Positions 10,195 to 55,334 of a stretch of 64,000 nt of DNA are shown piece after piece. The translations under genes were made by a program, and so were the position numbers. The notes under the pieces were generated by a model. That model was not told where the DNA came from and searched no databases. It saw nothing but the letters and a program-made list of their open reading frames with translations. Each line of letters opens with the position of its first letter. The stretch's first letter is position 1. Source of the stretch: an uncultured Gammaproteobacteria bacterium (GTDB taxonomy: Bacteria; Patescibacteriota; Patescibacteriia; UBA11705; DATKZF01); assembly GCA_964411255.1 (NCBI GenBank), contig CAYPKD010000004.1, forward strand, positions 94,037-158,036, written 5' to 3'.

Positions 10195-10270
10195 TGGAGC
10201 CACCCGCCGGACTCGAACCGGCGACCGACGGTTTACAAAACCGTTGCTCTACCAACTGAGCTAGGGTGGC
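10195..10270 (-). tRNA. tRNA-Thr (anticodon UGU), CCA encoded
   Basis: Manual fold: acceptor GCCACCC/GGGTGGC, D-arm GCTC-AGTTGGTA-GAGC, anticodon stem ACGGT/ACCGT with loop TTTGTAA (anticodon TGT), 5-nt variable loop, T-arm GCCGG-TTCGAGT-CCGGC, discriminator T, CCA. The overlapping + strand ORF 10082..10264 is spurious. Confidence 0.85.
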
Positions 10271-13891: not shown

Positions 13892-14266
13892 TTATATTCT
13901 GCCTTTTAAAAAAACATTCAATCGCATAAAGGAATTTTTCTCTCCTGCGATATATTGTATCAAGGCAATTAAATCCTGAAATCTTCTATCAATTTGAATC
14001 CGGCGCACTTTATTTGACGAACGTCGAAAACTTCTTCCTCGTTGAGCCTCAATATCTTCAATTAATATTTTTAAATCTTTTTCTCCGTTAAATCTAAGAC
14101 CGGGAATGGTATTAAATACTGGCTGTTCTCCAAGTAAATATCTAAGTAATGAAATGCAATCATTTATTCTAACCTGGAACTGATCTATTTTACTACCTGA
14201 TATTGGTTTTCTCAAAGCCAACTTAAACTTATTATATAGTTCTAAAAGTTCTGGTCTTGTCTTCAT
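13892..14266 (-). CDS. hypothetical protein
   Basis: 124 aa ORF, basic. Confidence 0.4.
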   Translation of the reverse strand: MKTRPELLELYNKFKLALRKPISGSKIDQFQVRINDCISLLRYLLGEQPVFNTIPGLRFNGEKDLKILIEDIEAQRGRSFRRSSNKVRRIQIDRRFQDLIALIQYIAGEKNSFMRLNVFLKGRI

Positions 14267-14384
14267 TTCACTCCTCCTTTGTGATATTATTTTTTATCAA
14301 ATATTTTCAAATCAGTCAACTTGACAAAATGTAAGAAATATTTTAAAATACTATCATTCAATATTCCAAACCCACTACTAAGGA

Positions 14385-14654
14385 GTGAAAATGAACAGTC
14401 ACCTTTCTGAAGCACAGCATCATGTTGATCTAGGAGAAACCGATACTTATATAAAATGTGAATATTGTCATAATTCATTGCCCAGTCATCATGCTGACTG
14501 TCCTCAGGTTACTAAAAAATTTCAAGAATGGAAAAAAGGGTTGAATATTGGCAGAAATGGCATAACTATGCCAAAAAATCTTAATCCTACTGCACAGGTC
14601 GGCTGGCATATAGGAAACATAATGCTTGATCCGAAAAATATTGCAAGAAACTAA
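14385..14654 (+). CDS. small Cys/His-rich hypothetical protein
   Basis: RBS aaggagtg; 'CEYCHNSLPSHHADCP' metal-binding-like motif; terminator follows. Confidence 0.5.
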   Translation: MKMNSHLSEAQHHVDLGETDTYIKCEYCHNSLPSHHADCPQVTKKFQEWKKGLNIGRNGITMPKNLNPTAQVGWHIGNIMLDPKNIARN

Positions 14655-14683
14655 ACTCTTCTGACATTCAGAAGAGTTTTTTA
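14655..14683 (+). terminator. rho-independent terminator
   Basis: ctcttctga-cat-tcagaagag followed by TTTTTT. Confidence 0.6.
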
Positions 14684-14904
14684 TTGACTTATTAAAATGT
14701 ATATGCAAAAATTTAAATAGGCCTGTTATTGCAGAGTATTTCAGGTCTTCATACTCTAACACTCTTGCGGAAAGGAAAACGACCATGCTGAAAGTAGCAA
14801 GAGACAATCCTTATGACGGTTAAATAATCGTCAAGGAACATCAGATGGATTTGATTCAATCCTTGGGCTGCGCCTAGCCGATCAAGGAATTTTAAAAATT
14901 TTTA

Positions 14905-14936
14905 ACTCTCAAGTGGCGCATTGAGAGTTTTATATT
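14905..14936 (+). terminator. rho-independent terminator inside an ORF-poor island
   Basis: actctcaa-gtggcgca-ttgagagt followed by TTTATATTT. Confidence 0.45.
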
Positions 14937-15182
14937 TGACAAATTTTTAATTTTATGAAAAAATTTAAATGGAGGGGGGTAGTCCAAGGTGGGACGTCAA
15001 TCAACCGTACAACAGTAGCGTCCACGAAAACCTTAAACAGTAAAGGAGTGAATGATGGATCACTTCAACATCGTCGGACGACCTGCGCCTGGAGACGACC
15101 CTTACGAGACCCCTAGCCTCAGGCTTTGAAAATTGACTTTTGGCTGCTTTTAAGCCGACCCTTGTCTTTTCAAAGCGACGTT

Positions 15183-15220
15183 GAACTCCTACTGACATTC
15201 AGTAGGAGTTCAAATTTTTT
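15183..15220 (+). terminator. rho-independent terminator (13-bp stem) closing the 14.94-15.22 kb unit
   Basis: gaactcctactga-cat-tcagtaggagttc then AAATTTTTT; shares the loop 'ctga-cat-tcag' with the 14655 terminator. Confidence 0.55.
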
Positions 15221-15223
15221 AAA

Positions 15224-15670
15224 TTATTTTTTCATTTTAAAAAACAACCAATTCTTATCCCTGAACTTTATCAATGCATACTTCCCCTTTAATTTTCTGC
15301 CTTTTATTTCAATAATATATTTTTTTTCTTTTTTCTCATCTAACATTTTGTATCTTCCTCTGTCCCAAACTTTTACCTCACCTGCGCCATACTCTCCTTT
15401 TGGAATCGTTCCCTTCCAATATGCATAATCAAGCGGATGATCTTCAGTTTGGACTGCTAATCTTTTTAATCCCACCTTTTTCGGTGGTTTTTTTGGAATG
15501 GCAAAAGATTTTAAAACACCGTCTTTTTCCAATCTTAAATCCCAATGCAAATTTCTGGCATGATGCTCCTGAATTGAATAAATATCTCCAGTTTTTGACT
15601 TTTTTACCACTGGTTTTGGTTCAGGAGTTTTAGTAAATTTTCTTTTCTTTTTATATTGTGTTAAAGACAT
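15224..15670 (-). CDS. stand-alone LigD 3'-phosphoesterase (PE) domain protein
   Basis: 'IQEHHARNLHWDLRLEKDGVLKSFAIPKKPP' matches the LigD-PE signature (H-ARRLH-D-RLE...W-VPKGP); 148 aa. Confidence 0.8.
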   Translation of the reverse strand: MSLTQYKKKRKFTKTPEPKPVVKKSKTGDIYSIQEHHARNLHWDLRLEKDGVLKSFAIPKKPPKKVGLKRLAVQTEDHPLDYAYWKGTIPKGEYGAGEVKVWDRGRYKMLDEKKEKKYIIEIKGRKLKGKYALIKFRDKNWLFFKMKK

Positions 15671-15673
15671 AGA

Positions 15674-16372
15674 TTATTTTAACAAGCCAATTATATTTCC
15701 TATCAATAGTCCTATTAAATACGCAAAGGCAGAAACTGCGGCCCCAATAACAAGCATTTCAAGTCCGCTCTTTGACTTGTCTATTTCTGTTAATTGGCCC
15801 TTATAATATCCTAGAATAAATAAACTTAAACAAGCTAAAATGATTGAAAGAATTATTCCATAACCAACTGGCAGAAAAAAGTATGGCAGAACAGGAACAA
15901 TTCCACCAATTATATATGAAAAAAACATATATACAGAATTTTTAAATGGCTTTTCATACTTACCCATTACAATTCCCAATTCCTTATGGGCTATTTCCTC
16001 TAAAAGCAATTTTTCATCTTTCATCACATGATTAACCATTTTCTTTATCTCATCATCATGATATCCTCTTTTTTTATAAAATTTAATTAAATCTTCCCTT
16101 TTTGCTTCAGGATCCTTTTGGATCTCATCTAATTCTTCTTTTAATAATTTTTCTTGGGCTTGTCTTTCAGATTTTGAAGATAAATATGTACCAGCTCCCA
16201 TTGATAAAGCTTCAACTAAAACAACAATGATTCCAGACAGAATTATAACTGCCCTATTATTTGTACCGCCGGCAATCCCAGTTAAAACTCCCAAAGTTGA
16301 GATTAATCCATCCTCAACTCCAAAAACCACCTGTCGTATTTGTCCAAAAACTTTTTGTGAAAACTTTTTCAT
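15674..16372 (-). CDS. VIT1/CCC1-family iron/manganese transporter
   Basis: N-terminal 'VFGVEDGLISTLGVLTGIAG' VIT signature, central coiled-coil/ferritin-like segment, C-terminal TM helices. Confidence 0.7.
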   Translation of the reverse strand: MKKFSQKVFGQIRQVVFGVEDGLISTLGVLTGIAGGTNNRAVIILSGIIVVLVEALSMGAGTYLSSKSERQAQEKLLKEELDEIQKDPEAKREDLIKFYKKRGYHDDEIKKMVNHVMKDEKLLLEEIAHKELGIVMGKYEKPFKNSVYMFFSYIIGGIVPVLPYFFLPVGYGIILSIILACLSLFILGYYKGQLTEIDKSKSGLEMLVIGAAVSAFAYLIGLLIGNIIGLLK

Positions 16373-16426: not shown

Positions 16427-17743
16427 TTACTGCTTCACGCAAGTAGTGATGCGTATAAGCAACTCATCCAAAAAGCGCTCAGCCTCAGCAAAAGAATCTG
16501 CTACCATTACACATTGTATTTTGCCGCCTTTATAATCAGCTTCTTCGTTCTTGTTCAGCAGCCCAGGATTATAAAAGGCAACTCCTTTTTTATTTTGTTG
16601 ATCAAAAAGAATCCCTGTACAAAGTTCGAGTAACCTGGAAAAAGGCATGTCACATAAATTCTTATGATTCATATCAATACCATAAATTACTTTGTCCAAA
16701 ACTCCCTGAACTCTGGCAAATTCCCTGATAAAAGTAACTCCGCCCTTTCGAGCATTAGCTTCAATCCAGGTTAATGTGTGTCTGCCATTCCTAAAAACAA
16801 TAACTGTATCAAACCCAATATCGCCCTCATGATCTAACCGATTATATTCCCGTGCAAATTCCATTCCCTCTTCCAGCATCTGGGCTTTATTGTATACTGG
16901 GATTCTAGCCGGGTATATTGCTCCGCCATATGTCCGGATATCACCAATCAAAATCTGTTCCCAGGGTCCAGGTAAGGGCATTACTTTGCCATTAACCATA
17001 AAATGAATTGATGGCGACACCTCAACTCCAGCCAGCCATTCTTCTACCACTCCAGAATTAAACTGAATTCGGTCATAGAATCTTTTTACTTTGTCCTGCC
17101 ATCCAGCTGAGCTGTCAAATCTAAAATTTTCAGTTGAGCTGGCGCCTTTATCTTCTTTCATTACGACTTGTTTTGCTCCTTTTCGAAAAAGCAATTTAGA
17201 AGCATCTATTACTTCTTTTACATCTTGTAAAAATTCTTCTCCATCAGCGACTTTCACACCAATTTCCTTGGCAATTGTTCTGAAATTACTTTTTCTACCA
17301 TTTCGTTCATTTGATGCTCTGCCAAGTATTTTATATCCTGTTTCCTGGGCAAATCTTTCTTCAAAATCACTAACAATAAATACATCGAACAGAGCCTCAG
17401 CTGGATCAGCCAATGACATCAGGTGATGTAGGGTTGCACTGTCTGCTAATAGCTTTTCACCTAAATGCTTTCCGTCAGCCTTTGGCACAATAAAAATTTC
17501 ATGCAAATTTTCATTGCCATATCCCAGATAATTTCTTCTATATTCCAAATAACTATTTGGCGGCATTGAGGATAATAAGAATATTGACTGTCCTTCTAAA
17601 GGAGCTACATGTAATACTCTTTTTTCATAATTTTGTATTCCAGGAATGTGTTTCCAATTTGGTTCAGACATAAAATGTCCGAATATGTTTGGGTGATGTA
17701 TGGCACTCACGACTACCTCCTGTCGTGTTAGCTTGAACCTCAA
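16427..17743 (-). CDS. ATP-grasp-superfamily enzyme (putative ligase), function unknown
   Basis: C-terminal 'IEANARKGG' resembles the ATP-grasp E-x-N-x-R motif; 438 aa; GC-richer than its neighbours; first gene of the operon with VIT1 and LigD-PE. Confidence 0.35.
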   Translation of the reverse strand: MRFKLTRQEVVVSAIHHPNIFGHFMSEPNWKHIPGIQNYEKRVLHVAPLEGQSIFLLSSMPPNSYLEYRRNYLGYGNENLHEIFIVPKADGKHLGEKLLADSATLHHLMSLADPAEALFDVFIVSDFEERFAQETGYKILGRASNERNGRKSNFRTIAKEIGVKVADGEEFLQDVKEVIDASKLLFRKGAKQVVMKEDKGASSTENFRFDSSAGWQDKVKRFYDRIQFNSGVVEEWLAGVEVSPSIHFMVNGKVMPLPGPWEQILIGDIRTYGGAIYPARIPVYNKAQMLEEGMEFAREYNRLDHEGDIGFDTVIVFRNGRHTLTWIEANARKGGVTFIREFARVQGVLDKVIYGIDMNHKNLCDMPFSRLLELCTGILFDQQNKKGVAFYNPGLLNKNEEADYKGGKIQCVMVADSFAEAERFLDELLIRITTCVKQ

Positions 17744-55145: not shown

Positions 55146-55334
55146 GGGGGTCTGGGGGGCTGATTGCCCGATGCGCGATACCTGCACATAATCAATACTT
55201 CGCATTTGAAGCCCCCCAGCGGTTTTTGCCCAGCACCAAAACAAAGTTTGGTGCTGGGTCGGCGCAAGCCGAGAACCGTATGGTTCTGGGCAAGTCAACA
55301 TTGAAAAGCCCAAAGCAGGCTCCAGGCCTGTTTT
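55146..55334. repeat. structured dispersed repeat, copy C with a compensatory hairpin swap and an inserted hairpin
   Basis: Core identical; central palindrome replaced by cccagcaccaaa-acaaag-tttggtgctggg; extra hairpin agaacc-gtat-ggttct; ends caggc-tccag-gcctg+TTTT. Confidence 0.8.

Follow-up and report, generated by a model that had tools for sequence, protein, structure and literature searches.

On balance, the GC-rich island described here appears to consist of two independently transcribed, orphan structured small non-coding RNA genes. The island occupies positions 14653-15222 of the window, the whole 64,000-nucleotide stretch of DNA that was analysed, where it lies between two convergent genes and comprises two cassettes on the + strand, each with a promoter and an intrinsic terminator (Table 1). 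A diverged relative conserves both units to a degree that clearly exceeds the neutral level. In the scheme we propose, a strong sigma-70-type promoter would drive each RNA gene and a Rho-independent terminator would end it, P1 and P2 would give rise to separate RNAs of ~218 and ~250 nt, and the products would act as RNAs, most likely as trans-acting regulators that pair with mRNAs via conserved unpaired stretches. The window DNA matches JGI contig Ga0309772_1000015 (364 kb) and is unchanged in the ENA and Logan assemblies.

Table 1. Coordinates of the island, its neighbours and other features of the window, with nucleotide identity between the window and the relative L014
Feature	Position in window	Strand	Description	Identity, window versus L014
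87-aa zinc-ribbon-like gene	14391-14654	+	Upstream neighbour	
T0	14653..14679	+	Intrinsic terminator of the 87-aa gene; 12-bp stem, 3-nt loop, T-run	96%
P1	14684..14712	+	Unit 1 promoter; TTGACT, 17 nt, TG-n-AAAAAT (near-consensus sigma-70, TG-extended)	90%, -35 hexamer kept
P1-predicted transcription start	near A14719/G14720	+		
Unit 1 RNA	~14719..14937	+	~218 nt; predicted consensus fold of four helices, then T1	76% (body)
Mini-ORF 1a	14785..14823	+	12 codons (MLKVARDNPYDG), inside unit 1	
Mini-ORF 1b	14845..14877	+	10 codons (MDLIQSLGCA), inside unit 1; 3' half is invariant hairpin 2	
T1	14904-14929	+	Unit 1 terminator hairpin	88%
P2	14936..14964	+	Unit 2 promoter; TTGACA, 17 nt, TG-n-AAAAAT (near-consensus sigma-70, TG-extended)	98%
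53-aa ORF	14955-15116	+	Begins upstream of the predicted unit 2 transcription start	
P2-predicted transcription start	near G14971	+		
Unit 2 RNA	~14971..15222	+	~250 nt; G-rich 5' end predicted to close a long irregular helix with an apical multiloop	91% (body)
Unit 2, 5' 84 nt				93%
Mini-ORF 2	15052..15129	+	25 codons (MMDHFNIVGRPAPGDDPYETPSLRL), inside unit 2	84% (mini-ORF stretch)
Unit 2 3' hairpin domain	15123-15176	+	Followed by T2	
Unit 2, 3' 51 nt				98%
100-aa TTG-start ORF	15126-15428	+	Leaves the island, antisense to LigD_N	
T2	15181..15213	+	Unit 2 terminator; 15-bp stem, perfect 33-nt palindrome	97%
LigD_N 3'-phosphoesterase gene	15224-15670	-	Downstream convergent neighbour	
438-aa PGM1-like ATP-grasp protein	16427-17743	-	Possible peptide-ligase type; in most relatives, absent from L006	
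Six-copy GC-rich elements	2203, 44945, 48529, 55147, 58065, 58148	+	ORF-free, structured, each ~165-200 nt	

An earlier sequence-only reading of this DNA had proposed two units delimited by promoters and terminators, and this division is borne out. Both promoters are near consensus, and a scan of positions 14200-15800 (1.6 kb) found 11 promoter-like sites compared with 4.7+/-2.2 in shuffled sequence, and 8 terminator-like sites compared with 1.1+/-1.1. Only the limits of the units move, from ~14700-14936 to ~14719-14937 for unit 1 and from ~14965-15220 to ~14971-15222 for unit 2; similarly, the TTGACA that had been placed at 14934 is present ahead of unit 2 but starts at 14936. The P1 and P2 regions form a 42-nt direct repeat with 71% identity and a spacing of 252 nt. 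The loop and flanks of T0 are those of T2, and the 11-mer CTGACATTCAG occurs in these two terminators and nowhere else within the 64 kb. The earlier remark that the last terminator shares a motif with the first is thus correct, although its stem has 15 bp and not the 13 bp then given. Two Logan contigs (L003 and L005, SRR14699967) both end within the 33-nt palindrome of T2, which probably reflects a break of the assembly graph at the palindrome and not biology. As had also been claimed, the island is GC-rich (unit 1, 0.394; unit 2, 0.476; window mean, 0.336+/-0.048), unit 2 falling in the top 0.4% among 250-nt windows, and no + strand ORF contained in the island reaches 60 codons.

The informative relative is the sole further member of the LigD_N 90% cluster; its contig, L014, is the same as L016, with L017 near-identical. 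L014 has the gene order of the window and carries the whole island. Between the two, identity is 53% at the four-fold degenerate sites of eight flanking genes (259/488), 71-86% over the DNA of these genes, and 69% and 83% in two ordinary intergenic regions. Each segment of the island can be set beside these values (Table 1); unit 2 includes a 43-nt block that is invariant. The layout of a trans-encoded sRNA gene, intergenic and with its own promoter and Rho-independent terminator, is found here with signals that are 88-98% identical in L014. Because the signals and unit 2 are kept while unit 1 diverges, purifying selection is a better fit than recent transfer of the island as a unit. As read from this sequence comparison, the nucleotide sequence of unit 2, both promoters and the terminators are shown to be under purifying selection.

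Consensus structures, predicted on the same two-sequence alignment that was used for scoring them, are significant for both units in these models. For unit 1, whose single-sequence fold has a z of -1.9, RNAalifold places 55 pairs with 4 compensatory changes, 5 one-sided consistent changes and none broken; the consensus energy (terminators excluded) has a z of -4.9 and was reached in 0/500 column shuffles. Sliding the 3' partners by 1-3 columns lowers the 4 compensatory pairs to 0-1. One predicted helix joins the region where ORF 1a starts to the corresponding region of ORF 1b, and the unit folds better on the + strand than on the - strand. The observed covariation was reached in 35/500 shuffles, a control that is underpowered because there are only two independent sequences. 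In the modelled structure, the fold of unit 1 appears to be conserved via compensatory changes.

In unit 2, the predicted 75 pairs contain 1 double change, 5 single changes and none broken, with a consensus energy z of -2.65 (8/500 column shuffles, terminators excluded). Every substitution in its paired columns retains pairing, and about 14/19 of its variable columns are unpaired by our own classification; the covariation value was reached in 248/500 shuffles, again with only two independent sequences. The single-sequence fold of unit 2 is similarly strong on either strand (z = -4.3 on the + strand, -4.6 on the - strand). The consensus fold reaches -55.2 kcal/mol on the + strand compared with -47.8 kcal/mol on the - strand, with structure conservation indices of 0.88 and 0.75, and G-U pairs point to the + strand, as do the alifold energies.

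We considered whether the units might be mRNAs for micro-proteins of 12, 10 and 25 aa with long structured UTRs, or dual-function RNAs, and regard this as unlikely. The mini-ORFs listed by the sequence-only reading do exist and the 12-codon length was right, although the ORF given as 9 codons has 10 and that given as 29 codons has 25 (15052-15129). All of them conserve an SD-like sequence and a start codon in L014. The AAAGGAG reported ahead of the unit 2 ORF is indeed there, 6 nt before a second ATG that is conserved in L014; with either ATG the peptide reads M(M)DHFNIVGRPAPGDDPYETPSLRL. Furthermore, both unit 1 ORFs stay open in the relative: ORF 1a keeps its 12 codons (MLNVAVDNPIDD) with 7/12 substitutions at third codon positions (our own count, p estimated at about 0.17), and ORF 1b becomes MEWNRIESLGCA, its frame kept via an in-frame 6-nt insertion. 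The first 16 codons of mini-ORF 2 are also nearly unchanged, with 14/16 residues retained. Against this, the first ATG of mini-ORF 2 is CTG in L014, and a 2-nt deletion shifts the frame, altering the C-terminus and leaving 19 aa (MDLLNIVGRPAPGDDPDIL) instead of 25. Before the indel, 1 synonymous codon change stands against 3 non-synonymous ones (H to L, F to L and Y to D). The start codon and SD of this ORF are base-paired in the consensus fold, and its stretch is the least conserved segment of unit 2, at 84% compared with 93% and 98% in what would be its UTRs. No reading frame across unit 2 is conserved between the window and L014 on either strand: the 53-aa + frame carries seven non-synonymous changes and one synonymous change (our own count) and has a different start in L014, and a - strand ORF diverges past residue 29. 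The marks of a small-protein gene, in which start, frame and stop are preserved and changes are mostly synonymous, are not seen in the unit 2 ORF. Since mini-ORF 2 is the least conserved segment, is frameshifted and leaves no frame intact, unit 2 is probably selected as an RNA, with mini-ORF 2 not being a functional product. In unit 1, four of the ORF 1a substitutions fall within predicted base pairs and retain the pairing; the putative mini-ORFs 1a and 1b could still be translated. We thus take the mini-ORFs to be incidental in unit 2 and at most accessory in unit 1. A D[ND]PY[DE] motif that is unique to two mini-ORFs in the six-frame translation of the window was rejected as coding evidence: it is lost in L014, and the underlying DNA match, equalled by 385/1000 shuffles, is at chance level. 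The earlier choice between small proteins and structured RNAs accordingly narrows, with conservation, folds, promoters and terminators on the side of RNA and micro-proteins disfavoured for unit 2; conservation of the mini-ORFs in relatives fails for unit 2, with its lost ATG and frameshift, and extends in unit 1 to ORFs that stay open.

Other readings assign the conserved sequence to neighbouring genes or to a different kind of RNA. The mini-ORFs would be precursor peptides if the 438-aa PGM1-like ATP-grasp protein encoded nearby belonged to a peptide-modification or peptide-ligation cluster. This protein weakly matches PGM1_C (E = 0.0028), its homologues have weak precomputed PreAtp-grasp matches, and neither the enzyme nor the units are present in L006; yet the PGM1_C match is below the curated cut-off, the units are missing from L007 and L009-L011, all of which encode a homologue of the enzyme, conservation of the peptides is poor between the two lineages in which enzyme and units are both present, and two unrelated genes separate the enzyme from the units, which lie on the opposite strand. 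A bona fide enzyme together with a co-occurring conserved peptide, as expected for the precursor of a PGM1-like ligase, was not found, and we hold this explanation to be extremely unlikely. A cis element of the neighbours, for example the unit 2 - strand serving as a structured 3' UTR or antisense partner of the LigD_N/VIT1 transcript, is very unlikely. It would accord with the equally good single-sequence fold of the - strand and with T2, which has no T-run on the - strand, so that LigD_N transcripts may read into unit 2. However, the + strand carries both P2, which is 98% conserved, and the T-run of T2, the consensus fold is the better one on that strand by energy and conservation index alike, and the element is missing from relatives whose LigD_N is 72-83% identical. 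A protein-sequestering or scaffold RNA, either a CsrB/RsmZ-like sponge or the RNA of a novel ribonucleoprotein and not a base-pairing regulator, seems distinctly unlikely. Unit 2 is conserved over almost its full length and not in one short seed, and unit 1 has 5 GGA motifs while unit 2 has 7, roughly twice the expectation from composition (our own count, made without statistics); but these motifs lie mostly in stems and not in loops, no Rfam sponge family matches, and no candidate binding protein was identified. From the same constraint over almost the entire 250 nt comes the bolder idea, for us a long shot, that unit 2 is the RNA part of a novel ribonucleoprotein or a new structured RNA class in a narrow lineage of ultra-small, probably episymbiotic bacteria.

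The interpretation as two small non-coding RNA genes calls for comparison with known RNA families. At the gathering score, tRNA-Thr was the only Rfam 15 match anywhere in the window; a search of 14600-15300 at E<=10, with the filters relaxed, gave nothing but weak terminator-like noise. With no Rfam model matching the island, the units are not a known RNA. The sequence-only reading had seen no match to tmRNA, RNase P RNA or SRP RNA, and the Rfam scan agrees, with 6S RNA also absent. A tmRNA, with its tRNA-like end domain and tag ORF, was found by neither Rfam nor ARAGORN, which in the window reported only tRNA-Thr at 10195-10270. The bacterial A and B models of RNase P RNA (P4 and CR-I to CR-V core) had no match at E<=10. 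At the same threshold there was none to SRP RNA (domain IV, GNAR tetraloop), and inspection revealed no GGAAGCAGC-type motif; 6S RNA likewise had no match at E<=10, and the predicted folds are not end-paired rods. Nor are the units leader-peptide attenuators, since unit 1 ends at its terminator ahead of a second promoter, the next gene after unit 2 is convergent, and no coding gene lies downstream. Paralogy of the two unit bodies was rejected as well (alignment score of 17 compared with 16.4+/-2.3 in shuffles).

Homologues of LigD_N with 72-83% identity share a conserved synteny (DUF4230, Peptidase_C39_2, VIT1, LigD_N), and one of them is labelled as a Patescibacteria group bacterium. At the syntenic loci L006, L007 and L009-L013 (LigD_N identity 72-83%), no island-like DNA was found. 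In L006, a distant homologue of the 87-aa gene sits immediately beside LigD_N with nothing intervening, so that the island must have been a gain of a narrow lineage or else a loss in others. We favour a gain between the zinc-ribbon-like gene and LigD_N, which would have taken place in a single narrow lineage of an AT-rich bacterium resembling Patescibacteria. T0 and T2 are homologous hairpins of the form AACTC..CTGACATTCAG..GAGTT, and the abutting genes of L006 have a single terminator unrelated to either; together, these sequence observations suggest that the island arose through insertion or duplication at an ancestral terminator. The upstream 87-aa protein (CxxC...H...C) had no homologue in the protein database; a distant homologue of its gene is seen in L006 (pairwise E = 2e-9), and the protein is fast-evolving, with 56% aa identity to L014 compared with 80-91% for its neighbours. 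At the syntenic spot of L007 (GCA_049319825.1, 4500-4770, + strand) there is a different GC-rich unit of ~230 nt, with TTGACA-17-TAAATT and a strong terminator, on the strand opposite to the island units and without an Rfam match. Different lineages may have acquired differing GC-rich RNA genes between the zinc-ribbon gene and LigD_N, which would make this site a hotspot.

Broader searches yielded little beyond the L014 lineage. A scan of the JGI metagenome collection with an invariant 20-mer returned only that lineage (L016 and L017). Because it missed the window's own JGI contig, which bears the 20-mer, the collection is incomplete and absence from it is weak evidence; the negatives of the metagenome (JGI) and GTDB scans are lower bounds. 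In the GTDB representative genomes, the two-block pattern had one match, in a coding region of a Chloroflexia with 69% GC, which we rejected as chance. Nothing real emerged from viral contigs, phage genomes or plasmids, and protein searches with the spurious ORFs overlapping unit 2 returned only the L014 ORF and low-complexity matches. Covariance models of units 1 and 2 (R1 and R2) detected no further copies in the window and 39 loci, so that the RNAs are single-copy. As far as the collections show, the units appear to be restricted to two closely related lineages.

If the products are trans-acting regulators, an A(A/C)(U/C)CCUU motif with two copies per unit (14803, 14857, 15097 and 15157) may matter, as CCUU-containing motifs are candidate pairing sites for the AAGG of Shine-Dalgarno sites. 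Duplex-energy target scans, which covered 85 start regions of the window and 11 neighbouring genes shared with L014, yielded no candidate that exceeded background or was conserved. The genomes of Patescibacteria/CPR bacteria are tiny and encode few classical regulators, and full-text searches of a paper library found nothing on sRNAs in this group. A pair of strongly promoted, constrained orphan RNA genes would offer a concrete entry point to RNA-based regulation in Patescibacteria/CPR, and the finding shows that GC-rich islands in AT-rich metagenomic genomes mark real, selected elements. The general importance is modest, this being a lineage-restricted candidate with no function assigned.

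The same window contains a family of six GC-rich, ORF-free structured elements that is unrelated to the island and may exceed it in interest (Table 1). The pattern GGGGTCTGGGGNNSC has 6 matches in the window with 0.02 expected. The scaffold consists of GGGGGUCUGGGGGGCUGAUUGCCCC, about 28 variable nt and UUCGCAUUUGAAGCCCCCCAG, followed by hairpins (in short form, GGGGUCUGGGG...GAAGCCCCCCAG). The copy at 55147 has one hairpin swapped for a different hairpin, and the segment 55141-55345 folds with a z of -5.3. Genes neighbouring the copies are unrelated, the variable parts have no match elsewhere in the window, Rfam gives no match, and the family is absent from the relative loci examined and from viral contigs. 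The island units do not belong to it: their covariance models miss the six copies, and the pattern is absent from the island.

Several known systems resemble the proposed RNA genes in part. Housekeeping RNAs (tmRNA, RNase P, SRP and 6S) share their size range, a GC content above that of the genome, and an own promoter and terminator, but would be expected in close relatives, from which the units are absent, and would match Rfam, as the units do not. Among dual-function sRNAs with a small ORF, SgrS/SgrT, RNAIII/delta-haemolysin and SR1/SR1P have a conserved peptide. The units are like them in combining a structured RNA with an internal, SD-preceded ORF of 10-25 codons, whereas the ORF of unit 2 is its least conserved part and is frameshifted in L014. 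Tandem trans-encoded sRNA genes with their own promoter and terminator include Listeria LhrC1-5, Vibrio Qrr and enterobacterial OmrA/OmrB. Unlike these, the unit bodies are not detectably paralogous, show no similarity to Rfam sequences or covariance models, and occur in two lineages only. The likeness to them, one of general features and not of homology, lies in short genes (200-250 nt) that begin at a strong sigma-70 promoter and end at a Rho-independent terminator, in the tandem intergenic arrangement with similar promoter modules, and in C/U-rich motifs able to pair with Shine-Dalgarno sequences. Finally, GC-rich intergenic islands in AT-rich genomes reportedly mark structured RNA genes, as Klein, Misulovin and Eddy are said to have found in 2002 and later GC-IGR screens after them. 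This is a principle of detection that defines no family and is silent on function; the sequence-only reading drew on the same signal, which is seen in the GC content of unit 2.
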